Of a stretch of DNA of 64,000 nt, positions 1 through 50,952 are shown piece after piece; within the stretch, counting starts at the first letter, position 1, and every line of letters starts with the position of its first letter. Below the pieces are notes generated by a model. It was not told the DNA's origin. It did not search any database and saw nothing but the letters and a program-made list of their open reading frames with translations. A program made the position numbers and the translations under genes. The stretch comes from a virus (Duplodnaviria; Caudoviricetes): the IMG/VR virus record IMGVR_UViG_3300037047_000246; one strand, written 5' to 3'.

Positions 1-1
1 G

Positions 2-402: not shown

Positions 403-424
403 GCGAGGCAGTTGGGCACGTTCG

Positions 425-775: not shown

Positions 776-786
776 CGACGTCACCA

Positions 787-813
787 AAGACACAGAAGAC
801 ACAGAAGACTCAG
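787..813. repeat. 3x9-bp tandem repeat AAGAC(A/T)CAG
   Basis: aagacacag aagacacag aagactcag; overlaps the stop of the minus-strand gene 810..1214. Confidence 0.85.
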
Positions 814-1214
814 TCTCCAAAGACCCAGTACTCGATTTTCTCAGAATTGGTCGGGGAGACCAGCACCGTGACGGCTGCCTCGGTCAGCGGGCTGACGCCG
901 GTGGACGCGTCCACCGGACACTCGTACGACATCTTGCCGCCAGGCGGCAACGTGATCGGATCGGCCGAGCCGTTCAGGGCCACGTCGATGTCCGAGGTCA
1001 TCAGGTTTTTAATGGTCATGTGCTTGGCTTTGCTGACCGAGCCAAACGGAATCTGGAACACCGTCAAAGGAGGCGTGGCCGGCGGCACGCCGATGGTGCC
1101 TACGTTTTGCTCGTTGTAGCTCGCCTGCTGCACGAAGGCGCTCTGACCGGAGTTGACTGCTGCCGAGGGAGGGGTCCACTGCAGCGTGCTGGTGCTGACG
1201 ACCGTGTGTGCCAT
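810..1214 (-). CDS. beta-rich hypothetical protein, possibly virion-associated
   Basis: 134 aa rich in S/T/V/P/G with alternating hydrophobic pattern; GGAG-like site upstream; only minus-strand gene in the early block. Confidence 0.7.
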   Translation of the reverse strand: MAHTVVSTSTLQWTPPSAAVNSGQSAFVQQASYNEQNVGTIGVPPATPPLTVFQIPFGSVSKAKHMTIKNLMTSDIDVALNGSADPITLPPGGKMSYECPVDASTGVSPLTEAAVTVLVSPTNSEKIEYWVFGD

Positions 1215-1253
1215 AACCCAGCCGGCGGCAAAAGGAGCCTATCGCGCGCCATC

Positions 1254-1291
1254 GGCGATTAGGCCGCGCGGCGCGTACTGGGCCGGGGAGG
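1254..1291 (+). promoter_or_regulatory. CGTAC-type promoter-like motif plus RBS
   Basis: CGTAC at 1274-1278, GGAGG at 1287-1291, ATG at 1300. Confidence 0.55.
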
Positions 1292-1299
1292 TGATCCGC

Positions 1300-1497
1300 A
1301 TGAAGTTTTCCGAAATGACGCTGGAGCAACTGATTTGTAAGCGCGATCGACTGAACCGAGAAATCGATCGGCGAATGCGCCTGCGCATTCGCCAGCCGGC
1401 CGCGCCATTAAGTATATCAAAAATCTGCCGAATCGATTTGTTGTTTTGTCGGACTGCTTCGATCTGCACTTGCTCGGACGGTCGCTTGATGTGCTGA
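1300..1497 (+). pseudogene. small gene whose 3' half is replaced by an inverted fragment of the 22-aa repeat gene
   Basis: Starts MKFSEMTLEQLICKRDRLNREIDRR; 1422-1525 reads on the minus strand as LIQHIKRPSEQVQIEAVRQNNKSI, matching the repeat in 23432..24103. Confidence 0.55.
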
Positions 1498-1598
1498 ATC
1501 AAGCTGTCATGTTTGACTGGAGAAATTTCTGCAAAGCCTAGCGATAAAACTGGTGCAAAATTCATGAGGCACCAGCTTTATCGAACCAGGAGGAACTG

Positions 1599-1985
1599 AT
1601 GTCGTTCGTGAGAGCACTTGAAATGGACGAGGTGAAGTTCGAACTTGCGGCAGAGCAAGAGCTGGAAAGTCTGGAGAAAGCCTTCGACGTCCCGGAGCAG
1701 CTGCGATGGGTGCGGGAGCAGCTCGCCTCAGGCAACTGTTGGGCCTGGTGCACCGCAGTGCTCCGGGCCAGGTGGGGCCCGTTTGTGGGGGAAGCCTGTC
1801 TTGGCGGCTGCTCGTATGAGTCAGAGGAGAAGTTTTTGGAGGACTCGTGCTACTACGACGGCATGGCGGTGGACGCCCTGAACGACTTGCAGAACAAGGT
1901 CGAGCAAGCGGCCGGGGCGCTCGAGCCGCTTATGACGCGAGAATCGGTCGACGAGTGGTTCGTCCGCCGGGTGCAGGAGGACTGA
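1599..1985 (+). CDS. hypothetical phage protein (C-terminal VRRVQED)
   Basis: AGGAGG RBS; 128 aa. Confidence 0.75.
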   Translation: MSFVRALEMDEVKFELAAEQELESLEKAFDVPEQLRWVREQLASGNCWAWCTAVLRARWGPFVGEACLGGCSYESEEKFLEDSCYYDGMAVDALNDLQNKVEQAAGALEPLMTRESVDEWFVRRVQED

Positions 1986-1999
1986 TTCTGAAGATCGCC

Positions 2000-2036
2000 G
2001 GAGCTGCGCGCCCGCTGCGCGTACTGGACCAGGAGG
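2000..2036 (+). promoter_or_regulatory. CGTAC-type promoter-like motif plus RBS
   Basis: GGAGC-N15-CGTAC (2020-2024)-N6-AGGAGG, ATG at 2045. Confidence 0.65.
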
Positions 2037-2044
2037 TGACCCGC

Positions 2045-2440
2045 ATGGCGAAATTCGTAGAGGTTCCCGCAGCAGCAATCGAACAACCCTTGCAAGCGCT
2101 AGGGTTCCGCCGCGTGTGCACGCACGGCCAGGTCGTGTACATCAAAGAGCACGACTGCTGCCGCAACGTGCTGGTCAAAGTGTACACTTCGATCCCGTAC
2201 TCTTTGGTTGCTCCGGCGGGCGCCGAAGCCGTCCGCCGAGCGGGAAAGGACTCCATCCGGGTGTGTTGCGCCTACGAGAGCTCGGTCAAGAACTTCGGCA
2301 TTGGCAAGTTCCCTTACATCGCCCGGGTGGGCACGGTCGAAGGCGTCGTGCAGCGCATGCTTGAAACCGTCAAGGCGGCATGGGTACGCGGCCAGGATTG
2401 GTTCGACGGCGTCCAGGTCAAGCAGGTGATGAGCGCATGA
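2045..2440 (+). CDS. hypothetical phage protein (C-terminal VKQVMSA)
   Basis: AGGAGG RBS, ATG at 2045; ATGA overlap with the next gene. Confidence 0.75.
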   Translation: MAKFVEVPAAAIEQPLQALGFRRVCTHGQVVYIKEHDCCRNVLVKVYTSIPYSLVAPAGAEAVRRAGKDSIRVCCAYESSVKNFGIGKFPYIARVGTVEGVVQRMLETVKAAWVRGQDWFDGVQVKQVMSA

Positions 2441-2676
2441 GCCCGCCCAGCCTGCCCTCGCCCCACAAGGGCTCCGTCGACCGATGCGACGCCATTGTCG
2501 ACGTGGACGGCACATCCGTCGTCGCGCGCTGCGGCGCACCTCCGATGCAGTGGCTGCGCATTGGCCTCAACCTGTACTGCAGGTGTTCCCGCCACATCAT
2601 CGACCGCACAGGCAAGCCCATGATCAAGGTCCTGACCTACGAGGAGGCGCTCGTGCTGAGCGTCCAGGAGAGCTGA
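2437..2676 (+). CDS. small Cys/His (Zn-binding) protein, paralog 1
   Basis: C..CGAPPMQW..YCRCSRH; ends TYEEALVLSVQES. Confidence 0.7.
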   Translation: MSPPSLPSPHKGSVDRCDAIVDVDGTSVVARCGAPPMQWLRIGLNLYCRCSRHIIDRTGKPMIKVLTYEEALVLSVQES

Positions 2677-2678
2677 CG

Positions 2679-2891
2679 ATGGACGTGAACCGCTGCAACC
2701 ACATTGACTGCGGCGTTCCAGCTGTGCAGTGGATATTCTGCGGCGCTCCAGCTGTGCAGTGGACATTTTTGACCGGAGCTGACGTGCTTTTTTGCCTGTG
2801 CTGCAGCCACACCATGGACAACATGTCCGACAGGTGGAAAAACCTAACTCATGAAGAAGCGCTGGTTTTGTCAGTGCAGGAGGACTTGTGA
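2679..2891 (+). CDS. small Cys/His (Zn-binding) protein, paralog 2, with internal 30-bp duplication
   Basis: CGVPAVQW/CGAPAVQW duplication (2708-2737 and 2738-2767); ends THEEALVLSVQEDL. Confidence 0.7.
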   Translation: MDVNRCNHIDCGVPAVQWIFCGAPAVQWTFLTGADVLFCLCCSHTMDNMSDRWKNLTHEEALVLSVQEDL

Positions 2892-3481
2892 TCATCACGC
2901 AGGCCGACATCGACGCCGGGAAAGTCAAAGATGCCATACGCCATATGCCCAGCGTCACCAGAGAGGTGGGAGCAGCCGCGCGCAAGCTGGCCGGGCAAGC
3001 CCAAGTGAGCTCGGACTTGAGAACGTACGGAGGCGCAGTGCACGTCCGTGTCCGCATCAAGCTGGCTGGCTCGAACGAGTATGCGCACTGGTTTGAGGAT
3101 GAGCAAGATCTGCGAGACTGCAAGCACATCGTGTGCATCGTGCTTGGGCTGCACTACAAGATGGGCATTGTGCCAGATGAGTTGTTCGATCCGAATGTGG
3201 ACTGGAAAACAGCAGGAGACGCTCTTGCTGGAGCCATGTACGAGCTTGTGTACGACGTCGCTCAGCCGGATGTGGACCGGCTACACGGCCGGGTGCTTCG
3301 GCTGCTCGACAAGCGATCCAAGACAGTGCCGGAGATGTCGAAGCGAGCCCGCGCCGCCTGGGTCAAGGAGGTGATGGACGACGTCCGCGACAAGCTGCGC
3401 CTGGTGCGAGCCGAGGTGCAGGAGCAGGACGTCGTGGACTTGTGGCGCGAGGTGTTGTGCGAGGAGACTCAAGACAGCTGA
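2888..3481 (+). CDS. hypothetical phage protein (C-terminal DVVDLWREVLCEETQDS)
   Basis: 197 aa ORF coupled to its neighbours. Confidence 0.75.
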   Translation: MIITQADIDAGKVKDAIRHMPSVTREVGAAARKLAGQAQVSSDLRTYGGAVHVRVRIKLAGSNEYAHWFEDEQDLRDCKHIVCIVLGLHYKMGIVPDELFDPNVDWKTAGDALAGAMYELVYDVAQPDVDRLHGRVLRLLDKRSKTVPEMSKRARAAWVKEVMDDVRDKLRLVRAEVQEQDVVDLWREVLCEETQDS

Positions 3482-3495
3482 GGAGGGCGACAAAA

Positions 3496-3717
3496 ATGGG
3501 AACCTTTGACTGCTCTTGGTGCGGCAGCCCGGCAACGCAGTTCGTGGTGCAGGGCCTGCGCATCGTCTGGCACCGGTGCGAGCGCCACAAGTTGGAAAGG
3601 TCGCTGTCTGGCTCCGGCTGCACGGGAGGGACAAGCGGCTATATCGGCGGAGCAGTTTTCACGAACGAGCAAGATGCGCTGAACTTCATCTACGTCCGGC
3701 GCGTTCAAGAGGGCTAG
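3496..3717 (+). CDS. small CxxC (Zn-binding) protein
   Basis: AGGAGG RBS; CSWCGSPATQF..RCERH; ends YVRRVQEG. Confidence 0.7.
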   Translation: MGTFDCSWCGSPATQFVVQGLRIVWHRCERHKLERSLSGSGCTGGTSGYIGGAVFTNEQDALNFIYVRRVQEG

Positions 3718-3729
3718 TCATAGCCCGGC

Positions 3730-3767
3730 GGAACTGCGCGCGACTCGTGCGTACCGGACTGCGGAGG
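3730..3767 (+). promoter_or_regulatory. CGTAC-type promoter-like motif plus RBS
   Basis: GGAAC-N15-CGTAC (3750-3754), GGAGG at 3763-3767, ATG at 3775 (22-codon ORF coupled to 3840). Confidence 0.65.
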
Positions 3768-3839
3768 TGACGGTATGCCGAAGACGAAGCTGACTGAATT
3801 CCGTCTCTCCGACGAGGATCAGGACGAGGAGGTGACAGT

Positions 3840-4820
3840 ATGAGACTACAGGACCATAACGTTATCAAGGCGATCATGGAAGCCATCACCCAGCCCGAGA
3901 TGGACTCCGCCCACATTGAGCGCGACCTGCCGCTCCGGGACGGGCTGCCGGTCACCCGCATCGACGGTGTGCCGTGCGCGATGGACGTCGTCAACGGGGT
4001 GATCCAGGCCGGAGAGGGCCGCGAGCAGCAGTGGTTCGAGGTGCATCTGCGCGACGTGACCCCCAAGCGCTTCCGCTCGCCCGAGGAGCAAACGAAGCTC
4101 GAGCAGGAGCACGAAGACTGGTGGCATGTGTCGTCGAGCCAGCGCTCCGTGTTTGTGCGCAACCGCTCCCGCTCCGGGGCCGTGGAGGACTTTCTGCGCA
4201 GGTTCCCCGGCGAGGCAGCCTCCGGTCTGGACATGCCCGATGCAGAGCTCGCCCGCGGGTTCGAATTCATCGACGACGAGGGGGACCGAATCCGCGCAGA
4301 GTTCATCGCTAAAGAGGTCATGGAGACCGAGGCCGAGGCCGCTCCCGACCCCCAGTATCCGCAGCCAGGTCAGAACTCTGCGAGCTCGCAAGGAGTTGGC
4401 GGTTGCCCGGCCGGCCAGTGCTCCTGCGGCGGGTGCTACCCGGAGCCGTCCGAGGACGAGGAGCAGGACGAACAGGACGACGATATCAACGCGGTCGATC
4501 CGAACGACCCCTACCAGAATCTGAAGCCCGAGGAGTGCTATTTTGGGGTAGCCGGCGAGTCGTGCGGCGGAGACCCGGACAGCAAATGGCTGATGGTGTG
4601 CCCCAAGGACTATTGGGACAAGAACCATCGCGCCTACGACGGCTACCTGGGCAACATCTGGAAGCACTTCCCCAGCTACATGCAGGCGCCTGAGGACATG
4701 GAGTGCACCTGGGCCATCCCGGACGACAAGGGCACCGAAGACGTCGCGATCGACATGACAGTGGCGGGGTTTGAGCGCAACCTGGAGCTGGAAAGTCTGA
4801 TCGAAGCAGAGGAGCCGTGA
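3840..4820 (+). CDS. acidic hypothetical protein, probably multidomain
   Basis: 326 aa; D/E-rich linker and small Cys cluster. Confidence 0.75.
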   Translation: MRLQDHNVIKAIMEAITQPEMDSAHIERDLPLRDGLPVTRIDGVPCAMDVVNGVIQAGEGREQQWFEVHLRDVTPKRFRSPEEQTKLEQEHEDWWHVSSSQRSVFVRNRSRSGAVEDFLRRFPGEAASGLDMPDAELARGFEFIDDEGDRIRAEFIAKEVMETEAEAAPDPQYPQPGQNSASSQGVGGCPAGQCSCGGCYPEPSEDEEQDEQDDDINAVDPNDPYQNLKPEECYFGVAGESCGGDPDSKWLMVCPKDYWDKNHRAYDGYLGNIWKHFPSYMQAPEDMECTWAIPDDKGTEDVAIDMTVAGFERNLELESLIEAEEP

Positions 4821-5443
4821 AAGCGCAGTTCGAAGCAGCAGAGGTGAAGGCGCGATTCGAGGCCTATTTGGCACCCATTGGCCTTTACCTGTACTGGACG
4901 TCTTTGACACTTCAGAACCAGAAAGACTTGGTTCGGTCCATAGTTGGCTGCGTGCAAGAACAAGAAGCCGCTCTGCGGAGCGCTAAAATTCAGGCCTACT
5001 GCGTGGCCTCAGGTCACACAGTTTCGATCCGCTTGAAGTGCCGTACAGGCACCAGACGGCTCCAAAAGGTCGTGCCTCGGAAGGGAGCTCCGACAGTCTC
5101 AGAGGTGGTGCTGGCATGCACGCCCCATTTCAAAGTAGTCCCGAACGGCGAAGCGTACGCGGCCCTGCACGCCGCTGCCCGCTGGTTTTCTGTGCTCGAG
5201 CTGGAATCGGCTCTGGGCGATGAGCTGCGAATCAAGATCGACGAGGCGCTGGCTGCACTGCCGACAGCGCAGAAGGCAAAGGCGCTGCAGCAAGCCGAGG
5301 CCAATCGGCACAACACCAGGTTGCGCCAACGGCAGGCGGCTTTGGAGCGGCTGGCGGAGACGATGCGCACCTGGGAGTACGGCGAGTCGGACGTGATGGA
5401 GGCTTGGCGCATGTCTCAAGTGGAAAGGGTGCAGCAGTCATGA
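4817..5443 (+). CDS. hypothetical protein (C-terminal DVMEAWRMSQVERVQQS)
   Basis: 208 aa, GTG start overlapping the upstream stop. Confidence 0.7.
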   Translation: MKAQFEAAEVKARFEAYLAPIGLYLYWTSLTLQNQKDLVRSIVGCVQEQEAALRSAKIQAYCVASGHTVSIRLKCRTGTRRLQKVVPRKGAPTVSEVVLACTPHFKVVPNGEAYAALHAAARWFSVLELESALGDELRIKIDEALAALPTAQKAKALQQAEANRHNTRLRQRQAALERLAETMRTWEYGESDVMEAWRMSQVERVQQS

Positions 5444-5859
5444 CGTCGTCTCAGTCATCGGTGGTCGGCGCGTGCGAGTCGCAAGTGCTGGCCCTGCTCG
5501 ACTGGTGGGTGGAAAAACACCAGGACGCCATCTTGGGCGTCTTGGAAGGTGCCGATCCGGGCGTCTTCGGCTCGGTGAGCTTGGATGCTGTGGGGTTCAA
5601 AATCCTGGAGCACTGGAGCGGATGGGAGGAGCTGTTCTTCAGGGACGTATATGCCGATTCGTTCGCCGCATTCACCTGGAACCGCTACGACAGCTATTGG
5701 GTGGGCATTAATACCAACGGCGTCAGGCATCTGGACGGGGAGCTGCACGGCCGGATCGGGTTGGTTGCCAAGGAAGCCGGCTGGATCGATAAACATCGCC
5801 GGACCATCCTCGCCACGCAGCGCCGCCTGCGCCAGATCAAGAAAGTGCAGGAAGCATGA
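5440..5859 (+). CDS. hypothetical protein (C-terminal IKKVQEA)
   Basis: ATGA overlaps at both ends. Confidence 0.7.
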   Translation: MTSSQSSVVGACESQVLALLDWWVEKHQDAILGVLEGADPGVFGSVSLDAVGFKILEHWSGWEELFFRDVYADSFAAFTWNRYDSYWVGINTNGVRHLDGELHGRIGLVAKEAGWIDKHRRTILATQRRLRQIKKVQEA

Positions 5860-5918
5860 AAGACTTGCTGCAAGAGTGCGGGCTGACTCCTGAAGAAGCG
5901 TTCAAATCAGGTCTGTAA
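5856..5918 (+). pseudogene. 20-codon N-terminal remnant of the repeat-protein gene at 23432
   Basis: MKDLLQECGLTPEEAFKSGL* versus MKDLLQKHGLTPEEAFKLGL at 23432, with clear nucleotide similarity. Confidence 0.75.
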
Positions 5919-5952
5919 CTACTAATCGCCCGGACTGGGCGAAGGAGGGCGA

Positions 5953-6342
5953 GTGATGCTGGAAGTCAAGCTGGAACTCCTCGTCGAACGCCAGGAGCTA
6001 GGCAGCGAGTCGTACTTTCTGCAGATCGAGGTGGAGTCGAAGGACAACCCGCTGCCGATCGATCGTAAGGAGCTCAAACAGGCGGCGGCGGCGGCGGCTC
6101 TCGCGGGCCTCTCGTCCAGCGAGCCCGCCGACGTCGTGGACCTGTGGTTTGACGGCAAAGATTTGATGGTGTCCGACGACAACGTCGTCCCGGCATACAT
6201 CTCGAAGGTCAAAGTGCTGCGATGGGTGATGGAGACCGCGAGGGTCGACAACTGGTATGTGCACCTGGCGACCGGGCGGTACTTCGCCAAAGACAACTTC
6301 GACCTGGGGAACAACATATGGCATGGCCGGGCGCCCGCTTGA
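5953..6342 (+). CDS. hypothetical protein
   Basis: AAGGAGG RBS; 129 aa. Confidence 0.7.
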   Translation: MMLEVKLELLVERQELGSESYFLQIEVESKDNPLPIDRKELKQAAAAAALAGLSSSEPADVVDLWFDGKDLMVSDDNVVPAYISKVKVLRWVMETARVDNWYVHLATGRYFAKDNFDLGNNIWHGRAPA

Positions 6343-6369
6343 GGTGTCCGGCCATCCAGAATATGCAAC

Positions 6370-6438
6370 ATCCCTTTGAAGCCGACCTTCGAGCGCAACT
6401 GGAGGTCGGGCCGGCTCGCGCGTACAGAGTGCAGGAGA
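6370..6438 (+). repeat. copy 1 of a ~69-bp hairpin + CGTAC + RBS module (copy 2 at 9166-9235)
   Basis: atccctttgaagccgaccttcgagcgcaactggaggtcgggccggctcgcgcgtac(a/c)gagtgcaggaga; the copies differ by one substitution and one T indel. Confidence 0.9.
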
Positions 6439-6784
6439 GATGATTGAAATGTCCAAGAAGCGCAAGCCCGAGCCGATGCAGTCATCCTGGTGTCGTACGT
6501 GCCGCTGCTCATGAGCGCCGATCGCGGATCCGCGCGCCTGGCGCGTACCGAACAGCGAGGCGGGCACCGGCCGCTCGGTCAGCCTGGCTGGCTCCCCCGA
6601 GCGGACACGGCCCCGCCCCAATTTTACATCAACCGCGCCGCAAGGCGCGCTGAGGGGTCATGAGACAGCAAGCCGACTTGACGCAGGACCCGGTGGGCCG
6701 AGGCCGTCTCTCTCGGCCAGTTCGAGCTGGCGCAGCAAGGCCCCGAATGCGGCTACATCGTCGAGCAGCTCAAGGAGCAACTCA

Positions 6785-7063
6785 ATGGCTGACAAAGAGC
6801 TGTATCAAGTAGTGACTTTTCTGGATTTCGAGGTGTCTGTGGCGGAGCATGCCGATCCGGTGCAAGCAGTCAACCTGGCGATCGATGCCACTTACCCTGG
6901 AGACCCGACTCACGCCACATACTTCATGGCCGATCCTCGCGAGTGGGAAGCCGGGCAAGAAAACCTGTCGGCCATTGGTCCGACGGACTTCGCGCTGTTG
7001 GTCATCGTAGGTGAAGTTGACACGAATCCATATCCGTTGGGCATCATTCGGAGAAAGAGGTGA
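6785..7063 (+). CDS. hypothetical protein
   Basis: AAGGAG RBS; 92 aa. Confidence 0.7.
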   Translation: MADKELYQVVTFLDFEVSVAEHADPVQAVNLAIDATYPGDPTHATYFMADPREWEAGQENLSAIGPTDFALLVIVGEVDTNPYPLGIIRRKR

Positions 7064-7068
7064 CTGGC

Positions 7069-7290
7069 ATGGCGGAGAAGAAAGACACCTACTTCAAGCT
7101 CAATTTGGATCAGGTGGACGAGATCCTGTCCGAATTCGGCATGACGGTGCAGCAGGCTAAGAATGTTGGAGCGGGTGTCCGACGCGCTGGACGAGGCGGC
7201 GAAGGTCCGCAGGGAGCTCGACGAGATGCGCGAAGACCGCTCCGGAGGCCGCTTCCGAGGGTATCCGGTGCAATCCTACACTATCTCTGA
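7069..7290 (+). pseudogene. small gene apparently frameshifted near 7165
   Basis: MAEKKDTYFKLNLDQVDEILSEFGMTVQQAK continues more plausibly in another frame as MLERVSDALDEAAKVRRELDEM at gctaag-a-atgttg. Confidence 0.45.
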
Positions 7291-7298
7291 GGCCCGCC

Positions 7299-7335
7299 GC
7301 AGGTCAGCGCGCCTGGCGCGTACTGGGCCAGGAGG
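7299..7335 (+). promoter_or_regulatory. CGTAC-type promoter-like motif plus RBS
   Basis: GCAGG-N15-CGTAC (7319-7323)-N6-AGGAGG, ATG at 7344. Confidence 0.65.
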
Positions 7336-7343
7336 TGACTCGC

Positions 7344-7757
7344 ATGCCGAGAGCGAAGCAAGCCAAGAGCAGAGCAGCAGTCGCGCAGGTGATGCTCGAC
7401 CTGCCCGAGGACCTGAAGGCGCCGGAGGGTTTGTCCGAGCGCAGCCTGCAGGCCTGGGAAACCATCGTGCAGTTCCTGGTCGCCAACGACCTGACTTACA
7501 CTGGCGGCTGCGGGGCGTTCATGGACCCGAAGGAGTGGAAGGAACGCGGCGGCGAGTATGGAACGGAGTCCGTGCTCGTCATCTTCCACGAGGGCTCCGA
7601 GGTCGGCCAAGCGTTCTCGATGGACGACTGCTACGAGCGCGGAGGCGGGGCGAACTGCTACGCCAAGCTCGAGGCGATGTCGGACGAGCTGGCGAAGATC
7701 GGGCTGTTCGCCGAGCAGTGCACGCGGCGCTACTCGGCCGTCTACGAAATCAAGTGA
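7344..7757 (+). CDS. conserved hypothetical phage protein
   Basis: YTGGCGAFMDPKEWKERGGEYGTESVLVIFHEG resembles a recurrent phage family (from memory, not searched). Confidence 0.75.
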   Translation: MPRAKQAKSRAAVAQVMLDLPEDLKAPEGLSERSLQAWETIVQFLVANDLTYTGGCGAFMDPKEWKERGGEYGTESVLVIFHEGSEVGQAFSMDDCYERGGGANCYAKLEAMSDELAKIGLFAEQCTRRYSAVYEIK

Positions 7758-7766
7758 GGTGGCGCC

Positions 7767-7979
7767 GTGAAGAAAGCGATGCTCAAGCGACTGGGACTGA
7801 AGAGCGTGACTCCTTGGAGCAACGGCCGAGATCCTACGGAGTTCGGGTGGGTCATCGATGGCGAGAACTGGACGGCGGACAGCCTGAACGCAGATAACGC
7901 TCCGGGAAATCTCGTCGACGTGGCCAAAGAAGAGGGATATGGCGACGACGTAACGGGGTTTCTGCAAGACCGCTGCTGA
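7767..7979 (+). CDS. hypothetical protein
   Basis: GAGG RBS, GTG start; 70 aa. Confidence 0.6.
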   Translation: MKKAMLKRLGLKSVTPWSNGRDPTEFGWVIDGENWTADSLNADNAPGNLVDVAKEEGYGDDVTGFLQDRC

Positions 7980-8058
7980 CTGCGCAGTATATGCCAGGCA
8001 GTTCGCGAATATGTGCCATGACATGCGCCCGTACGCGCGGAGTCCGCCGAATCCAGCC

Positions 8059-8096
8059 GGGAGCCGAGCGGCGCCCGCCGTACCGGGCGCAGGAGG
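8059..8096 (+). promoter_or_regulatory. CGTAC-type promoter-like motif plus RBS
   Basis: GGGAG-N15-CGTAC (8079-8083)-N7-AGGAGG, ATG at 8104. Confidence 0.65.
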
Positions 8097-8103
8097 TGAC
8101 GAA

Positions 8104-8424
8104 ATGTCGAGCCAGACCAAGCCGTACCGAGCAGCGGGCATCTTCTACACGACGTACCAGAATGAACCGTCGCAGCCGTTCTGCCTGGAGCTGCGCCGCG
8201 GCCAAGCGGCCGAAGACTTGGCAGAGTTTTACCGCAAGTCCTGCCAGGATCCGGAGGATCCGGACGCGTTTCAGCCGGGCGTGCTGTCGGCCGAGGAGTA
8301 CTACGGAGACGTCGCGATGCGCGGGCCTGACGACGAGGAGTCCGAGATCCTGTTCGTGACGTTCGCCGACGAGGACCGGGTCGAGGCGCTGGCCGAGCTC
8401 GACTTGCCGGCAGAGGAGTCATGA
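8104..8424 (+). CDS. acidic hypothetical protein
   Basis: AGGAGG RBS; ATGA overlap with 8421. Confidence 0.7.
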   Translation: MSSQTKPYRAAGIFYTTYQNEPSQPFCLELRRGQAAEDLAEFYRKSCQDPEDPDAFQPGVLSAEEYYGDVAMRGPDDEESEILFVTFADEDRVEALAELDLPAEES

Positions 8425-8864
8425 AAGTCAAGCTTGTCAAGCTCGAGCTAATACATACCGGCGCGGCCATCGTGGACGTGGCGTTCCTGCTGCCAGGGTG
8501 CAAACGCAGCCGCGAGGTCAAGTTCTTCGTCCGAATGCAGGGCGGCGTCCTCGCCGTCGATGTGCATCCGATTCCGCTCAGCGTGCCCAAAAACATCAGG
8601 CAGCGGCTTGGAGAGGCAGGTTGGGAGCGCATCCGTGCCGAGAGCTTCCGGCTATTCGCAGAAGCCGGAGGTCCGAAAGCCCTAGCCGAGCGCATGACCA
8701 AAAGCGAAGCAGAAGACCGCCAGCGCCTGATCCAGGAGGCCACCACATCGGTGAAGTATGCTGCGGCGAAGCTGCTGCGGTGCAAGCTGGGATGCCAAGA
8801 TGCAGAGGACATCGTTCGAGATGTGGTTCGAGAAGTGTTCGTCAAACAAGTCATGCAAAGCTGA
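8421..8864 (+). CDS. hypothetical protein (C-terminal VREVFVKQVMQS)
   Basis: 147 aa. Confidence 0.75.
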   Translation: MKVKLVKLELIHTGAAIVDVAFLLPGCKRSREVKFFVRMQGGVLAVDVHPIPLSVPKNIRQRLGEAGWERIRAESFRLFAEAGGPKALAERMTKSEAEDRQRLIQEATTSVKYAAAKLLRCKLGCQDAEDIVRDVVREVFVKQVMQS

Positions 8865-9165
8865 CTTTTGAACACCCCCGGCTGAAGCGGATCGGAGGGC
8901 CGAGCGCTGCGCGCGTAGCGGCGAGTGCGACAGACGCGGGCAACGGCCGACGACCCGCCAACCAATTCGCTGAAACATGGAGGTCTGCATGCACTGGCAT
9001 TAGGCGTGACTCCGCAAGGGTGCCGCGTTCCGCTCGTGGCGGCGCCCCAGGAGAAGCAAGCGCGAGGGCCGGCGGACATGATCACTCCGTCGGATGGCGT
9101 GGCCGGGCATCCTCTGCAACCTTCGGGTCGACGCGGAGGCTGGCCCGGCCACCGTCGCGCCGGGG

Positions 9166-9235
9166 ATCCCTTTTGAAGCCGACCTTCGAGCGCAACTGGA
9201 GGTCGGGCCGGCTCGCGCGTACCGAGTGCAGGAGA
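9166..9235 (+). repeat. copy 2 of the hairpin + CGTAC + RBS module
   Basis: Near-identical to 6370-6438; CGTAC at 9218-9222; precedes ATG 9242. Confidence 0.9.
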
Positions 9236-9241
9236 TGACGC

Positions 9242-9619
9242 ATGGCGAAGAGAAAGACCCCTGAGCAGATTGTCGCCGAAGTGCATGAGCACAATCCGGA
9301 CGGGCTCGACATCGGCGTGCCGGTCGACTACGCGCCGTCCGACGGCGAGGTGGACAACATCGTCTATCTGGTGTGCAAATACGCCGCGAACTGGCCCATG
9401 CGCGGCGCGGACTTGGCCATCTGCAAGATGATGGCCGGCGAGATGCGAGGGCGCGAGGGCATTGAGCAGCTCGTGCGCGTGACGTGCGAGTACGTCTGGG
9501 ACCATATCTGCGGCGAGCCCAAGAAGCCGACGGCCAAAGACTTTTTCAAGCACATGAAGCCTCTTCTCGAGGAGTGGTATAGCAAAACCTCGGCGGACGA
9601 CAGGAGCAAAACGTCATGA
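9242..9619 (+). CDS. hypothetical protein
   Basis: 125 aa; after the TGA the same frame continues PVLDLWREVIARDLGALS, resembling the shared C-terminal module. Confidence 0.7.
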   Translation: MAKRKTPEQIVAEVHEHNPDGLDIGVPVDYAPSDGEVDNIVYLVCKYAANWPMRGADLAICKMMAGEMRGREGIEQLVRVTCEYVWDHICGEPKKPTAKDFFKHMKPLLEEWYSKTSADDRSKTS

Positions 9620-9687
9620 CCCGTGCTCGACCTGTGGCGCGAGGTGATCGCCAGAGATCTCGGAGCCTTGAGTTGAAGGAGGATGGA

Positions 9688-9807
9688 ATGAAGGCACTGC
9701 TGGCGAAGTATGGGATGACTCCGGAGCAAGTATACGAAACCGGTGTGTTTTGTGCGTTGGATCTGTGTGCAAGACTCATAATCTTGCAGCCACGACGCAG
9801 ATCGTAG
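9688..9807 (+). pseudogene. truncated paralog of the repeat-protein N-terminus
   Basis: AAGGAGG RBS; MKALLAKYGMTPEQVYETGVFCALDLC versus MKDLLQKHGLTPEEAFKLGLRCILDLC; no repeats follow. Confidence 0.6.
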
Positions 9808-9846
9808 CCCGGCTGACGTATCGCCCGCCGGAAGGAGCAAGAAGTC

Positions 9847-10077
9847 ATGATTCAGATCACCACCATCACGCGCGGCTACTTGACTCACGCCGACCGCAAG
9901 CGCGCCATCAAGCACCTCCGTCGCCGCGGCTATGATCACTTCGTCGAGTACCGGGACACGGCCGCGAAGTACGCGCTGTGCTACGGCAAGTACATCCGGC
10001 TCGAGCGGATGCAATGCCAGGACCTGCTCGGGCTGGCCGCCGGGCCGGTCCAGCTTCCCCTGGCAGGAGTTCGGTGA
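9847..10077 (+). CDS. basic hypothetical protein
   Basis: GCAGA-N15-CGTAT motif variant and AAGGAG RBS upstream. Confidence 0.65.
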   Translation: MIQITTITRGYLTHADRKRAIKHLRRRGYDHFVEYRDTAAKYALCYGKYIRLERMQCQDLLGLAAGPVQLPLAGVR

Positions 10078-10099
10078 TGTCCGGCGGGAGGGACGACTG

Positions 10100-10462
10100 A
10101 TGACAGACGAAGACAAACTGATTGCCGAAGTGCACGAGGAAGAGATCAAGAAGATCTTTCTGTTCGTCCGCGGTCCGCTGGACAATGCCATATCTTGGGC
10201 TGAGCTCTGGACTCAGCGGCAGGCTGAGGACTACGTCAAGCACGACCTGGCGAAAGCCGGCGTTCTAGGGAAGCCTTTCGAATCGTACAGGGTGGAGCGC
10301 CACCGGGAAGAGAGCGAGGTCTCCATCTTGATCTGGGGCGAAGACAGTCCGAGCGTCCAGCTCGACGACTACGGAGACAAGAAAGGCCTGCTCGTAAAGC
10401 TGGATGGCAAAGAAGTCTTCAGCAATCTTCGACCCATCGAAGATGATGAGGAGGTCGAATGA
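10100..10462 (+). CDS. hypothetical protein
   Basis: GGAGG RBS, ATG at 10100. Confidence 0.7.
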   Translation: MTDEDKLIAEVHEEEIKKIFLFVRGPLDNAISWAELWTQRQAEDYVKHDLAKAGVLGKPFESYRVERHREESEVSILIWGEDSPSVQLDDYGDKKGLLVKLDGKEVFSNLRPIEDDEEVE

Positions 10463-10902
10463 AGACCGTGCTCACCATCGGCGGGTTCATCGCGGCGGCG
10501 GTCTTGGCTTGCATGGCTCTGGTCTTGGTGGGGGCCTTGAACCTGGTGCTCAACGGCTACCACTCGGAGTGCGGCATCTGGGAGAACGCGGTGCCGTTCG
10601 CTTGCAACCCCGGCAAGAAGCCTGAGGGGAAAGCCAACGTCGCCCGCCCTGCCCCGCCCGCCAAGGCCTCCTTGAAGGCGTCCGCCGCGCCGCAAAGGCC
10701 GGCCGGCCGCCTCGCGCCGCAGAAAGCAGCCGCAGTTTCAAAGCCCTCAAACAATCCGTACACGGGCCGGCGAGAGCCTTGGGGCTGCGGCCCGCTTCAA
10801 GCCGAGCCTTACCGGGTGCAGTGCGTCAACGGGATCTGCTACCACGACCCTGGATTTCGCGCAAACTGCGGCCTGGCGCACGACTGGAGGGACGGGCAAT
10901 GA
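10459..10902 (+). CDS. membrane-anchored or secreted protein with Pro/Ala linker and Cys-rich tail
   Basis: Hydrophobic N-terminus (GGFIAAAVLACMALVLVGALNLVL); P/A/K-rich linker; four-Cys C-terminus. Confidence 0.7.
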   Translation: MKTVLTIGGFIAAAVLACMALVLVGALNLVLNGYHSECGIWENAVPFACNPGKKPEGKANVARPAPPAKASLKASAAPQRPAGRLAPQKAAAVSKPSNNPYTGRREPWGCGPLQAEPYRVQCVNGICYHDPGFRANCGLAHDWRDGQ

Positions 10903-11505
10903 AGACTCGGCAAGAGTTGCTGAACTTGATCCAGCAGTCGTCCGACGACCTGCTCAAAGCGATGTCGGATGCCGTTCAGCTACATAGGCATAATGTCAAC
11001 AGTCAGCTGCAGCAAGAGCAAAAAATATAAGAAGCCCGCAATCGCATCGCGAAAGACCGTGCGGGCTTCAAGCGGCTTCTGCTGCGCTCGAAGCTGCAGG
11101 TGGCCCGGGTCAAGGGCTATGAGCTGCGCAAGTGGAATCTGCGTTTGATCGACGCCAGCCCGGTCGCCCAAGTCCCGGTCGTGCACGAGATCACGCTCTG
11201 CTCGGGCGACTACAGCGACTACAAGCTCGAGGAGCTGCTGCGAATTGCGGTGGCCAAAGAATACCAGGTGCCATGGTTTATGGGTAGTAACGGGCAAAAG
11301 ACTCGAAGTTGCCCGAAGCATGCATCCGGACGTCTGGTCCAAGGCGATGAAGCGGCTGCGCCGCAAGGCCGCTTGGATGACCGCCATGGACGCGGCCCGA
11401 TGCACGGCCAACCCGGCCGCACAGCACATGTCCAAAGACAAGCTGCTGGAGCTGGTCGGCCGCGCGTACGACAACGTGGTCCTGAAAGCAGTGCAGGATG
11501 TCTGA
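10899..11505 (+). pseudogene. disrupted gene with an in-frame TAA (11028-11030) and a frameshift near 11270-11300
   Basis: The frame of 10899 continues past TAA into 11100..; the plausible C-terminus (…VVLKAVQDV) lies in the frame of 11245..11505; both breaks sit in AT-rich patches. Confidence 0.55.
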
Positions 11506-11866
11506 GCGCCTCAGGCCGTCCAGACGCCAGCTGGCGCAGGAGCTTGAAATGAGCGTCGAGATTCTGGAGTTCATGTTGGGTCTGGACCACTTCAGGCTGC
11601 GCTGGCGCAATCCGCTGCACGGCCCGGAGCGCAGCGAAGTCTACCGGTTCAGGCTCACTCCGGGCCGCAAGCAGCTGTCTGTGGCCACGACCGGATTCCC
11701 TTCGTTTGCGCCTCCGCCCGAGCTGCGCCAAGCGCTGGAAAAAGCCGGACACTGGACGGCGATCCGAGACCAGCTGATTCGCCAGGAGCTGGATGCCCTG
11801 GCCGCGCAATTCGGCGAGACGGTGCTGGCGCAGATTATGAAGTCAAGACGCGGCAGGCGCACTTGA
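11498..11866 (+). CDS. hypothetical protein
   Basis: 122 aa, overlapping the upstream stop. Confidence 0.65.
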   Translation: MSERLRPSRRQLAQELEMSVEILEFMLGLDHFRLRWRNPLHGPERSEVYRFRLTPGRKQLSVATTGFPSFAPPPELRQALEKAGHWTAIRDQLIRQELDALAAQFGETVLAQIMKSRRGRRT

Positions 11867-12129
11867 CAGCAAGGGCAGTGTTTGATCTTTCATTTGCGGC
11901 AACCTGCATGAGCAACATTCACGTGCGCGTCGCCGCTAGGGCGATTCAAGCAGCTCGATTCGAAGTCGATGGCCAGCCGTTCGACGAGCTTTATCTGGCT
12001 GCCCAAGAGGCGGAGTTTGCCCACTCGGACGACGGACAGCCGCACCAAGTGCTGGCCGTCGTGGACGACGAGCACGGCATGTTTTCGGCTGGAGAAGTGG
12101 TCTACACGTCCAAAGGCGCGCCGGAGTAG
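11863..12129 (+). CDS. hypothetical protein
   Basis: 88 aa; start uncertain. Confidence 0.55.
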   Translation: MTARAVFDLSFAATCMSNIHVRVAARAIQAARFEVDGQPFDELYLAAQEAEFAHSDDGQPHQVLAVVDDEHGMFSAGEVVYTSKGAPE

Positions 12130-12187
12130 CCGCGCAGGCTTGCATGCTTGGCGCGCAGGTGCGCTGTAAAGTCAGGGAGGTGACAAC

Positions 12188-12340
12188 ATGCACGCCTGCG
12201 GAAACCCTTTGCACGACGTTCCCCTGTACATCGTCATGGCGCTGCCGTTCTTGGCGCCCCTGCTGGTGTGGCTGAAGATGAAGTTCGGCCGCCGCTGCGA
12301 ATGCGGACACGACCACGCGCAAGACCACGAGCATACCTGA
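12188..12340 (+). CDS. 50-aa single-TM protein with Cys/His-rich tail
   Basis: GGGAGG RBS; MHACGNPLHDVPLYIVMALPFLAPLLVWLKMKFGRRCECGHDHAQDHEHT; below the ORF-track size cutoff. Confidence 0.7.
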   Translation: MHACGNPLHDVPLYIVMALPFLAPLLVWLKMKFGRRCECGHDHAQDHEHT

Positions 12341-12366
12341 CTTCGTCTGCGCGTCGAAGGGCCGGA

Positions 12367-12404
12367 GGAGATGCGGCGCGGCGGCGCGTACCTGTGCCGA
12401 GAGG
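12367..12404 (+). promoter_or_regulatory. CGTAC-type promoter-like motif plus RBS
   Basis: GGAGA-N15-CGTAC (12387-12391), GAGG at 12401, ATG at 12411. Confidence 0.6.
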
Positions 12405-12410
12405 TGCCGC

Positions 12411-12689
12411 ATGCTTCGAGATCGCAAAAATTTGAAGGACCTGGAGTTTGCAGCTGTGCTGCAGTTCGGCGTTCAGGCGGCGCGCTTGCGGTGCACTTCG
12501 GCTGAGCAAAACAGTCTGGGGTTTGTCAATCTCGACAAATCTGGCAATTCGACGCATGAGCAGTTGTCCATATCGTTCATGTCGTCCCGCGAAGTCGGGT
12601 TCGACCGGGTCATGTGCGGACTGTTGCACGCTGCTTACGGCGAGCAGTTCACTGGCTACAGGCATGACTACTGGATGCAATGCGGCTAG
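12411..12689 (+). CDS. hypothetical protein
   Basis: 92 aa, downstream of the motif. Confidence 0.65.
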   Translation: MLRDRKNLKDLEFAAVLQFGVQAARLRCTSAEQNSLGFVNLDKSGNSTHEQLSISFMSSREVGFDRVMCGLLHAAYGEQFTGYRHDYWMQCG

Positions 12690-12787
12690 CCACCATCTGC
12701 CTGAAGCTGGCGGCGTTCCTGGACATGATTGAAGTGGACGCACTTTGAGAGGTCATAAGAACAACGAGTAGGCTGAGGAGAAGCGTC

Positions 12788-13036
12788 ATGGACCCGAACG
12801 CAGCACGGATGAGGCAAGCGCAGAAGCAATTGGCTGCAGACTGGAACAAGAAACACCGAGTGGGTACGCCAGTGCGATACTGGCTCTCTGACAAACAAGT
12901 CGCGGCCGACGGCGAATCGGTCACAGGGACCGGGTCCGCAGTGCTGGGAGGCCGGGCAGGCGTGTTCGTGAAGGGTGTGGCGCATTTTGTGCCGCTGGAA
13001 ATGCTCGAGCCGATAGAGCCTGAGCAAAAGAGCTGA
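12788..13036 (+). CDS. conserved hypothetical phage protein
   Basis: WNKKHRVGTPVRYW...SAVLGGRAGVFVKG resembles a recurrent phage family (from memory). Confidence 0.7.
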   Translation: MDPNAARMRQAQKQLAADWNKKHRVGTPVRYWLSDKQVAADGESVTGTGSAVLGGRAGVFVKGVAHFVPLEMLEPIEPEQKS

Positions 13037-13038
13037 TT

Positions 13039-13311
13039 ATGAACCAGTTCAAGTTCAAGTTCAAGCCCGAGCGCGACGCCAAGGGCAACGCCGTCTTTGA
13101 TCCGCACCGCCCGTGGTGCTGCTGCTGGTCAGCAGCAGGCTTCTGCGGCCGACCAGCCAGGTTCTTGTGGTGCAACTTGGCGCGCCCCTCGCTGCAGGTG
13201 GGAGGAGGTGTGATGGCGCTGTGCAATCAGCACAACTGGAAGGCAGGTTACGACCAGTGGCGCCGAGTGACGGCCGACGAGCTGGACGTGCTGCTGGTGC
13301 ATGAGGTCTGA
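13039..13311 (+). CDS. small Cys-rich protein
   Basis: CCCW..FCGRPA..LCNQH; ends LLVHEV. Confidence 0.65.
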   Translation: MNQFKFKFKPERDAKGNAVFDPHRPWCCCWSAAGFCGRPARFLWCNLARPSLQVGGGVMALCNQHNWKAGYDQWRRVTADELDVLLVHEV

Positions 13312-13319
13312 AGCCGGGC

Positions 13320-13357
13320 GAAGGCCGAGCCCGCTCGCGCGTACCGAGGGGTGGAGG
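13320..13357 (+). promoter_or_regulatory. CGTAC-type promoter-like motif plus RBS
   Basis: GAAGG-N15-CGTAC (13340-13344), GGAGG at 13353-13357, ATG at 13367. Confidence 0.65.
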
Positions 13358-13366
13358 AACCTGGCG

Positions 13367-13558
13367 ATGCCCGAAGATCTCAACTACATCTGCGTGGACC
13401 GGTGCGACTGCTGCGGCTGCAGGCGAGTGGGCACGATGCTGCACCACTTGGGAACGCCGGTGCTGTTCCTGTGCGCCTCTTCCGAGTGCGGCGGCCGGGC
13501 AGTGTTCGAGGCGACAGCCCGGAGAGACATCGACCGGTGGCTCCAGGAGGCGGCCTGA
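13367..13558 (+). CDS. small Cys-rich protein
   Basis: CDCCGC..LFLC..EC; ends RWLQEAA. Confidence 0.65.
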   Translation: MPEDLNYICVDRCDCCGCRRVGTMLHHLGTPVLFLCASSECGGRAVFEATARRDIDRWLQEAA

Positions 13559-13605
13559 TGCAAGCTGGCGTTTTGGACGGTTTCACTCTTGCTGGAGGTG
13601 ATTGC

Positions 13606-13833
13606 ATGGCTCCGAAGTTCGAGCACGATTGCGACGAAGGCTGCCGGTTCCTGGGGCATCTGGCAGGCGTGGACCACTGGGTGCACGCCGAGAGCGATCC
13701 GGCCGGCTGCGAGCTCATCCAGCGCCGGAGCGACCAGCCGGCCGACTACTCCGCCTGGCCTCTGCAGGACGTCCCTTTGCTGCCCGCGCCCGCGCGCCAG
13801 CGCTGGGCGCTCACCCTGGCCTTGCTGGGCTGA
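13606..13833 (+). CDS. conserved hypothetical phage protein (PKFEHDCDxxCxFLG type)
   Basis: GGAGG RBS; HDC motif recalled from other phages. Confidence 0.7.
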   Translation: MAPKFEHDCDEGCRFLGHLAGVDHWVHAESDPAGCELIQRRSDQPADYSAWPLQDVPLLPAPARQRWALTLALLG

Positions 13834-13917
13834 GGTCCGCGTAGAGCTTTTGGAGCCCGCCCTGCTGCTCGGGGCGGGCCTTGGAATCGCAACCTTTCTG
13901 CTGTGGAGGTGACGGAC

Positions 13918-14280
13918 ATGTCGAATCCGAGTCTTACCAAGAAGATTGCCGGCGATCTGGCGAACAAGTACGGAGTGCCGATCGAGGCCGTGCTGCACGC
14001 GATGACGGCTGGACGTGGCTTGGCAATCGAGGAGTTGCGCGAAGGTCAACGACTGGCCGAATTCAGCGATCCGCAGCTGGCTTGCGCCGTACTGGCCGCT
14101 GTGCCGCGGGTGCGGCTGGTGGCTGGTCTTCGAGGCCTGGAGCTGCGGCCCGAGCGGCTGCTGGACGACCAGGGCATGGCCGAGCTGCAGTCGCTGGTGG
14201 CCATAGCTGAGCGCGCGGCTCGAGCCATGATGCCTCCCGAGGCAGAAGGCGCTCCGAGCGCGTACCAGGAGGGGCCTTAG
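13918..14280 (+). CDS. hypothetical protein
   Basis: GGAGG RBS, ATG at 13918. Confidence 0.7.
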   Translation: MSNPSLTKKIAGDLANKYGVPIEAVLHAMTAGRGLAIEELREGQRLAEFSDPQLACAVLAAVPRVRLVAGLRGLELRPERLLDDQGMAELQSLVAIAERAARAMMPPEAEGAPSAYQEGP

Positions 14281-14538
14281 CCGCAAGTGCCGGCAGTTTT
14301 AAATATGGCACAGATGTGAGCAAAATCTATGTCAAATATTCGGCAAATGCGTTTGGGCACTGGAAGCCGGCTGAACTGCGCGCCGAAAGGCCGCAGCGCG
14401 GCTCTCGACAAATTCGACCGAGACTGGAAGGCGCAGCTGTACGGCAGAACAGACGCGCTGTGGCAGCTGCGCTGCAGGCAGGACGTCCTTGTGGCTCGCC
14501 TGCGCGACGCGCTGCGGCAGCTTGACCTGGAGGTAAAG

Positions 14539-14730
14539 ATGAAGACGTGGAAAGTGTGCATGGTGGATGAGTCTGGTTGCCCGACGTCTCAAAAGCTGCA
14601 AGCATCAAGCCGGGACCAGGCGTGCGCCCTGGTGCTCGAGGGGCTGCGGCAGCAGGGCCTGCAAGCGGCAGTGCAGGTGCTGTGGGCCGAAGAAGTGCTG
14701 CCCGAGGACAGTTCGGACACTGACGTTTGA
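14539..14730 (+). CDS. hypothetical protein
   Basis: Internal GGAGG-taaag-ATG within ORF 14329..14730; the upstream in-frame part may be a fused or decayed gene. Confidence 0.55.
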   Translation: MKTWKVCMVDESGCPTSQKLQASSRDQACALVLEGLRQQGLQAAVQVLWAEEVLPEDSSDTDV

Positions 14731-14748
14731 ACCTGAAAGGAAGGCGAC

Positions 14749-15066
14749 ATGCTGAAGCCAGGTCAAAGAGTGTCGCACGACGGCCGAGGACTAGGCCGAG
14801 TGCTGGCAATCCGCCCGCTGCAGCCGAGCTGCGCCTGCCAGCTGGGCCGAGCCCTCGACTCCGGAGAGCCTGGCTTCGGCGCGCTGGCCTGCGCAGCCGT
14901 CTACGGGCCGGACAGGTACCCATACCTCGTTCGGTTCGATTGCGGCTACGAAGACGTGTACGCGCAGTCCGACCTGACCGAGGTCGCGGACTGCGCCGTC
15001 CTGCCCCGGGAAGGGCCTTCGGAGCCCGCCATCGAACAAGGTGGGGCTCGAGGTCGTCCGACCTAG
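14749..15066 (+). CDS. hypothetical protein, SH3-like beta pattern
   Basis: LKPGQRVSHDGRGLGRVL...YPYLVRFDCGYEDVY; last gene of the + strand block. Confidence 0.7.
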   Translation: MLKPGQRVSHDGRGLGRVLAIRPLQPSCACQLGRALDSGEPGFGALACAAVYGPDRYPYLVRFDCGYEDVYAQSDLTEVADCAVLPREGPSEPAIEQGGARGRPT

Positions 15067-50896: not shown

Positions 50897-50952
50897 AATA
50901 TCTGTGCGCCATTTGGCGACCCACGCCGACCGTGCGTGACCGCACAAAACGC

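Follow-up and report, generated by a model that had tools for sequence, protein, structure and literature searches.

The DNA analysed here, a stretch of 64,000 nucleotides hereafter called the window, derives from an uncultured phage (Duplodnaviria; Caudoviricetes; IMG/VR record IMGVR_UViG_3300037047_000246) and corresponds to the minus strand of genome positions 233,348–297,347 of a 362,524-bp source record with terminal repeats. A 42-kb block of small accessory genes within this 362-kb genome contains a repeated intergenic element, in which two short boxes held at a fixed distance from each other usually precede a Shine-Dalgarno (SD) sequence and a start codon. The repeats are predicted promoters, and they probably constitute one phage-specific class of promoter-plus-leader cassettes, similar to the promoters of extracytoplasmic function (ECF) sigma factors and read by a sigma factor that the phage itself encodes. 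An earlier note on the same DNA had described some of these repeats as a phage-specific or hijacked ECF-type promoter class heading early transcription units.

A composite two-box motif with fixed spacing

The complete signal has the form CGNRRNT-N14-CGTAY-N7-8-GGAGGTGA-N4-6-ATG. An upstream heptamer, for example CGGAGCT, CGGAACT, CGCAGGT, TGGAGGT or CGGCGAT (consensus in this genome CGG(A/C)GNT-like), begins precisely 21 nt upstream of the C in CGTAC and is followed by a 14-nt G+C-rich spacer, the sequence (G)CGCGTAC(Y)GG, 7–8 nt, GGAGGTGA, 4–6 nt and the start codon. CGTAC was found at all 11 positions where the earlier note had placed it, as were its variants CGTAG at 8914 and CGTAT at 9817. 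The SD that it had described as usually lying a few nucleotides downstream is present at 10 of these 13 sites, 6–11 nt from the box and with a start codon 23–30 nt after the C of CGTAC; the gap between CGTAY and SD is 8 nt in most copies. Neither an SD nor a start codon is found near the remaining sites (6544, 8914 and 14261), the first two of which are full two-box copies. The purine-rich pentamer reported 15 nt upstream does occur, but is better described as the heptamer defined above, which is missing at 14261. The self-complementary spacer CGCGCC-T-GGCGCG was confirmed at 6544 and 7319. When the sites are aligned on CGTAC, the stop codon of the upstream gene falls ~35–57 nt before the motif at many of them, and the cassette occupies intergenic gaps of ~65 nt. 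CGTAC by itself is common, with 26 occurrences on the plus strand and 16 on the minus strand of window 1–15000 against 11 motif members, so only the composite carries signal.

A genome-wide motif scan, as the earlier note had proposed, was performed with a matrix covering −24 to +7 around CGTAC, with the SD excluded, that had been trained on the 11 sites of that note. Outside the training region, 12 matches exceeded 16 bits, compared with a mean of 0.85 and a maximum of 2 in 20 order-3 Markov simulations and with 2 in the reversed genome. All 12 held-out matches are located within genome 298–326 kb. With a model built from all good sites, sites in the block scored 18–33 bits and scores elsewhere than genome 283–326 kb reached at most 16.2 bits; because iteration of the matrix drifted to GC-rich noise outside the block, thresholds of at least 18 bits were kept.

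Although 68% of the block is coding, 24 of the 25 strong sites lie outside coding calls (binomial p = 2e-11), in agreement with the mostly intergenic position first reported, and the enrichment in non-coding DNA holds. The sole strong site inside a coding call is an artefact of the start-codon call. Every strong site with a called downstream gene is co-oriented with that gene (21 of 21). The cassettes are arranged in two divergent arms, one on the genome minus strand (the plus strand of the window) at 284.0–298.6 kb, with one further site at 311.5 kb, and the other on the genome plus strand at 299.5–325.4 kb. Including weaker complete copies (genome 298099, 302648, 312352 and 320945; window 9817), the genome contains ~28–30 cassettes. 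The sites within the window are, in window coordinates:

1253–1302, plus strand: cassette 1, CGGCGAT at 1253, CGTAC at 1274, SD, ATG at 1300 of a 65-aa open reading frame (ORF) ending at 1497; a training site scoring 30.2 bits
1999–2047, plus strand: cassette 2, CGGAGCT at 1999, CGTAC at 2020, GGAGGTGA, ATG at 2045; 131 aa
3729–3777, plus strand: cassette 3, CGGAACT at 3729, CGTAC at 3750, GGAGGTGA, ATG at 3775
6400–6451, plus strand: cassette 4, TGGAGGT at 6400, CGTAC at 6421, AGGAG, start at 6444 or 6449
6523–6548, plus strand: two-box copy with no adjacent SD, CGCGGAT at 6523, CGTAC at 6544, spacer CGCGCC-T-GGCGCG
7298–7346, plus strand: cassette 6, CGCAGGT at 7298, CGTAC at 7319, GGAGGTGA, ATG at 7344; 137 aa
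8058–8106, plus strand: cassette 7, CGGGAGC at 8058, CGTAC at 8079, GGAGGTGA, ATG at 8104; 106 aa
8893–8918, plus strand: two-box copy without SD, CGGAGGG at 8893, CGTAG at 8914; 19.7 bits, outside the training set
9197–9244, plus strand: cassette 9, TGGAGGT at 9197, CGTAC at 9218, AGGAG, ATG at 9242; 125 aa
9796–9849, plus strand: weaker variant, CGCAGAT at 9796, CGTAT at 9817, GAAGGAG, ATG at 9847; 76 aa; below 9 bits
12366–12413, plus strand: cassette 11, AGGAGAT at 12366, CGTAC at 12387, GAGAGGTG, ATG at 12411; 92 aa
13319–13369, plus strand: cassette 12, CGAAGGC at 13319, CGTAC at 13340, GGAGG, ATG at 13367; 63 aa
14240–14265, plus strand: doubtful site, CGTAC at 14261, lacking a CG-type heptamer and a close start codon; below 9 bits when left out of training

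The site at 14261 is probably not a member of the motif. The ORF opened by cassette 3 has only 22 codons (3775–3843) and its stop codon overlaps the ATG at 3840 of a 326-aa gene (ATGA), which suggests translational coupling of the two. The two-box copy at 6523–6548 implies a leader of ~115 nt before the ATG at 6660, and the copy at 8893–8918 sits within the 378-nt gap that precedes cassette 9. Cassettes 4 and 9 belong to a near-identical duplication of ~75 nt (window 6376–6450 and 9173–9245) that reaches from the last part of the upstream gene through the cassette into the opening codons of the downstream ORFs and points to recent gene shuffling mediated by cassettes. The genes upstream of several cassettes also end alike, in ..GTGCA(C/T/G)(C/G)A(G/A)G(T/C)(T/C)TGA, and these similar ends produce extra apparent conservation at motif positions −45 to −38. 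Such ends are found at:

window ~13296–13311
genome ~317190–317205
genome ~322940–322955

Conservation of the cassettes in related phages

Exact-pattern scans of IMG/VR identified two further large records with several matches, designated G001 and G002, the genome containing the window being G000:

G001: 273,770 bp, 64% complete, block at 68% G+C
G002: 376,674 bp, complete, block at 55% G+C

An alignment of a 557-aa sigma-like protein from these three phages, described below, was used as a query and gave nine further records; a single-sequence query found no relatives of the protein, whereas the three-sequence alignment succeeded. The protein is consequently present in all records by construction. 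The pattern CGNA-N17-CGTA-N8-10-GGAG has 8–41 matches in each of six records of at least 180 kb, nearly all of them in one region, while the reversed pattern has 0–1; it was absent from three small fragments (8–20% complete). Cassette clusters are present in eight related phage records of 180–436 kb.

The spacing between the boxes was examined without bias by picking sites through the downstream half only (GTAN or CGTAN, 6–9 nt, SD and start). CG.A was then located exactly at −21 in 33 of 34 sites of G001, 29 of 41 of G009, 29 of 36 of G003, 8 of 18 of G000 and 7 of 15 of G002, and at any other offset in no more than 4 sites. The consensus for the lineage is CGNAA(A/G)T-N14-CGTA(T/C)-N8-GGAGGTGA, relative to which the heptamer of the window genome is richer in G+C; the usual downstream box in G002 and G009 is CGTAT.

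The blocks of G000 and G002 are syntenic and encode proteins of 35–80% identity. In eight cassettes paired between the two genomes at corresponding block positions, about five of them with a downstream gene checked for orthology, the columns of the heptamer and of CGTA are conserved and those of the spacer diverge; cassette 2 is among those kept, at the ortholog in G002. The boxes are maintained across relatives whose blocks have 55, 55, 57, 61 and 68% G+C, and in a derived form at 46%. The derived form is found in G015, a more distant record (46% G+C, 72% complete) with about ten shifted copies at 35–68 kb that read (C/T)GGAA(A/G)T-N13-CGT(T/C)-N8-10-GGAGG, and this shifted version indicates that the promoter class is older than the CGTAY form.

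In G001, the region at 239–273 kb comprises two sub-blocks that have the same CGTAC box and differ in their upstream heptamers. Those at 257–273 kb are CGTACGT or CGTAGCT, and those at 239–250 kb, which frequently fall within the loop of a G+C-rich hairpin, are CGGAGGT, CGTAAGC or CGCAAGT. The sub-blocks may represent two temporal or factor sub-classes.

Predicted transcription start and leaders

At least ten complete two-box copies, located in G000 (genome 312352), G001, G003 and G009, lack an SD and have their ATG 12–13 nt downstream of the C of CGTAY. At sigma-70-family promoters, RNA synthesis begins ~6–9 nt downstream of the −10 box. If such copies give rise to leaderless mRNAs, transcription would start at about +13 and the promoter would consist of a −35-like heptamer CGNRRNT at ~−34 to −28, an unconserved 14-bp spacer and a −10-like CGTAY at ~−13 to −9, which is a sigma-type geometry. 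In the SD-bearing copies, the same distance would correspond to the first G of GGAGG. The predicted 5′ end of the RNA is therefore the first G of GGAGGTGA or a neighbouring nucleotide, giving leaders of ~13–17 nt, and none in the variant copies. The fixed 8-nt gap may reflect a leader of the minimum length possible for an mRNA with an SD. The very short leaders put forward in the earlier note are supported to this extent, from the distances between motif and start codon.

Genome-wide, genes without an SD have (T)GTA(A/T) starting 13–14 nt before the start codon in 27 cases, compared with ~3 at neighbouring offsets. These cases form a second promoter-like class of G000, TGTAA or G-TAnnnT before SD-less starts (for example at genome 20398, 122491 and 231690), which implies many leaderless mRNAs in this phage. 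Other SD-less two-box copies are followed by A/C-rich leaders (G000 genome 299524–299583 and 325410–325454; also window 8914–8975). The two genomic stretches have an identical 14-mer, CAGACAACCAACCC, 13–33 nt before the start codon. This element is a possible translational enhancer or small RNA.

Candidate sigma factors and timing

No family match to an RNA polymerase beta subunit was found in the phage genome, and we infer that the host core RNA polymerase would be directed to the cassettes by a very divergent, ECF-like sigma factor of the phage. The gene at 51068–52741 had already been singled out as a potential sigma gene, and its product is indeed sigma-like; the genome encodes five sigma-like proteins in all, of 278, 258, 221, 259 and 557 aa. 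The 278-aa and 258-aa proteins are group-3-like sigmas, and the 259-aa protein has two region-4 domains. The 278-aa protein, which is RpoS/RpoD-like, was considered as the reader and is unlikely to fill that role, as it has no match in the complete genome G002, which has cassettes. Two candidate readers are retained:

window 51068–52741, plus strand: 557-aa sigma-like protein
genome 52921–53586, minus strand, outside the window: 221-aa ECF-like protein

Against TIGR02937, the 557-aa protein falls slightly short of the cut-off (41.7 versus 42.9 bits). Its similarity to sigma factors is confined to the C-terminal third, with region 4 at residues 421–468 and a second region-4 or helix-turn-helix-like stretch at ~507–544; the large N-terminal part has no family match, and no homologs in cultured phages were found by tblastn. 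In G015 and G017 the protein is shorter (439–449 aa) and stops before the C-terminal tail. The 221-aa protein has a weak region 2 (27.9 bits with Pfam Sigma70_r2) and best matches of the ECF type; region 4, the second of the two domains of an ECF sigma, was not detected by sequence. It is present in all five complete genomes at 57–74% identity. Nearly all of the 50 best PDB matches to its AlphaFold model are sigma factors, including Mycobacterium tuberculosis SigE, and the model aligns over its full length to Escherichia coli sigma-E and M. tuberculosis SigH. PDB sequence searches with both candidates gave nothing useful.

Both candidate genes are preceded by a sigma-70-type promoter, TTGNNN-17-(TGG)TANNNT, in the window phage and most relatives examined, and the block is for this reason probably middle and not early; the early units of the original description are thus unlikely. 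The proposed cascade would run from the host sigma to one or more phage sigmas and on to the cassettes, with the 42-kb block as the middle (delayed-early) class. Within window 1–15000, there was no excess of competing sigma-70-type promoters (2 found, 2.0 expected) or of U-tract terminators. A strict genome-wide scan for TTGNNN-N14-16-TGNTANNNT returned 12 sites, within the 7–18 obtained in simulations, so early promoters cannot be mapped in that way.

Upstream of the 557-aa gene (window 50900–51067), three elements are kept in most of 11 relatives examined: a TTGNNN-17-TGGTANNNT promoter, a YGTAAAYT box, and a leader whose end, directly before the start codon, reads ..GGTAAGTCGgc-hairpin-gcCGCATGGAGG. 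This leader may be regulatory. It is conceivable, though doubtful, that the cassettes are read by the 557-aa protein and not by a conventional ECF sigma, which would represent a new mode of promoter recognition and, as the lineage also encodes PurZ, may suit DNA with 2-aminoadenine at the invariant A of both boxes.

Several observations weigh against a phage ECF-like sigma as the reader. The upstream box does not contain the AAC of ECF promoters, being CGG(A/C)GNT here, CGNAA(A/G)T in G003 and G009 and (C/T)GGAA(A/G)T in G015, so that of the ECF-type assignment made earlier it is the CGT(A) downstream box and the rigid spacing that stand. No motif match lies near either candidate sigma gene, unlike the autoregulation usual for ECF sigmas. 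The model of the 221-aa protein is of low confidence (predicted local distance difference test score, pLDDT, of 62) with Foldseek E-values of 0.01–1. The two candidates are inseparable by co-occurrence, as complete relatives have both, and co-occurrence of motif and sigma genes is not independent evidence because the phages are related. Finally, the incomplete and distant G015 and G017 have homologs of both sigmas and almost no exact-pattern matches, G015 carrying the CGTT/CGTC variant.

Alternative explanations for the repeats

The cassettes could be promoters read by a hijacked host sigma factor, either ECF or another alternative sigma. The CGTA-type box and 14-bp spacer do resemble host ECF promoters (PMC5758882), and the missing beta-subunit match is in keeping with dependence on the host. 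However, the phage has conserved sigma genes of its own behind host-type promoters, and retention of the boxes in blocks of such varied G+C content fits a phage-carried reader better than a factor common to diverse hosts. ECF sigmas are moreover normally kept inactive by anti-sigma factors. A host reader, which the earlier note had allowed for, is for these reasons unlikely.

The two boxes might alternatively be a direct-repeat binding site for a repressor or activator, of the operator or stoperator type, with transcription starting elsewhere. Both begin with CG-N-A and, being 21 bp or two helical turns apart, would face the same side of the DNA; the sites are also asymmetric, intergenic and co-oriented, as are the L5 stoperators (as cited in PMC3203893). 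Against this, the block has no other recurrent promoter signal, the short gaps filled by cassettes leave no room for a separate promoter, the spacing between box and ATG in the leaderless variants is that expected for a −10 box, and the two arms diverge from one point without any other common signal. A purely operator-like role is accordingly judged improbable.

A third possibility is that the element acts in RNA, as a processing site or an SD-fused translation-initiation signal within long polycistronic transcripts. The SD follows at a set distance (8 nt in most copies), the region before CGTAC is modestly more self-complementary than its shuffles (mean z −0.70, n = 28), and the SAS and ESAS elements discussed below are similarly fused to an SD (PMC3203893). 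Complete two-box copies nevertheless occur without an SD, and others directly before an ATG. The hairpins differ between sites in position and partners, their stems using either the heptamer or the GCGCG beside CGTAC, and we read the folding tendency as a product of G+C-rich spacers, perhaps with some terminator function but no common structure. The inter-box spacer keeps its length but not its sequence, as expected for recognition of double-stranded DNA, and this leaves an RNA element with little probability.

It is very improbable that the repeats chiefly represent recombination cassettes that spread by duplication and whose present sequence is without function: cassettes 4 and 9 are near-identical, as described above, and spacers are common to the pairs at genome 311540/322981 and 314451/315265, but most copies have unrelated spacers with the same boxes, and the boxes are kept at orthologous positions despite the divergence of the encoded proteins.

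The accessory block and its predicted regulation

The first 16 kb of the window has 60–63% G+C and mostly plus-strand genes. Genes of the block encode a MoxR-type AAA ATPase, a DUF2201 metallopeptidase/VWA protein, a fusion of Mom-like and restriction-endonuclease-like parts, a GIY-YIG endonuclease and an ATP-dependent DNA ligase, the remainder being many small proteins without family matches. No structural genes were recognised among them, and the block probably functions in host takeover or anti-defence. A megablast search with window 1–12000 gave no match to cultured phages, and no Rfam family reached its gathering score in the window. The sequencing runs listed as containing the stretch are DNA only, from groundwater and coal metagenomes.

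Read as promoters for a phage sigma, the cassettes provide a testable regulatory map for an uncultured lineage of phages of 180–436 kb, with one promoter class of ~25–40 copies per genome. The motif predicts a start at the SD and a cascade from host sigma to phage sigma, and the search for the reader is narrowed to two sigma genes. It can serve to mark out the accessory block in related phages and as a guide for annotating the small genes and leaderless starts there, and it offers compact parts that combine a promoter with a ribosome-binding site and have a dedicated sigma. The mechanism itself would be of an expected and fairly ordinary kind among phage gene switches, and a useful one.

Comparison with known systems

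A survey of huge phages mentions sigma-70 and anti-sigma genes and no promoter class (PMC7162821). Among repeated phage elements, the start-associated sequences (SAS) of Cluster K mycobacteriophages and their extended form (ESAS) are likewise conserved, asymmetric, SD-containing repeats; they lie directly before the start codons of non-structural genes, all in the same orientation, and some extend further upstream (PMC3203893). The SAS is located 3–7 bp before the start codon, whereas the conserved boxes described here lie 8–34 nt upstream of the SD and also occur without an SD or at leaderless starts, so they are not tied to ribosome binding. The early-promoter stem-loop elements (PeSLs) of T4-like phages, which are composites of promoter and terminator, resemble the cassettes in being repeated between small, variable accessory genes of a plastic region with recent duplicates (PMC2839356, PMC4122927). 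PeSLs, however, combine a sigma-70 early promoter with a defined stem-loop, while the cassettes have no sigma-70 consensus and only weak, heterogeneous hairpins.

ECF promoters have AAC in the −35 element, CGT at −10 (CGTA for sigma-W) and spacers of 14–17 bp, the sigma-W promoter of Bacillus subtilis being TGAAAC-N16-CGTA (PMC5758882). The cassettes agree with these in the CGT(A) downstream box (CGTAC here, CGTAT in G002 and G009, CGTT or CGTC in G015), the 14-bp spacer and the close adherence to a consensus. They differ in the lack of AAC, in candidate sigma genes that do not carry the motif, and in that an anti-sigma partner was not identified.

Phage sigma factors with promoter classes of their own include gp36 of phiEco32 and that of phage 7-11 (consensus tAATGTAtA; PMC4331800), gp28 and gp33/34 of SPO1 (PMC13401047) and gp55 of T4. 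Compared with these systems, the cassettes have two boxes with a rigid 14-bp spacer and a fixed fusion to an SD, are present in ~28 copies within one accessory block as opposed to a few copies before structural genes, and would be read by candidate sigmas that are very divergent. The GTA core is common to the cassettes and the phiEco32 motif, and the proposed order of events is also alike, with the sigma gene expressed from sigma-70-type promoters and the polymerase then redirected to a well-conserved phage motif heading later genes (PMC4331800, PMC13401047). The phage-encoded sigma promoter classes of phiEco32 and 7-11 and of SPO1 are therefore the closest working analogues of the cassettes.

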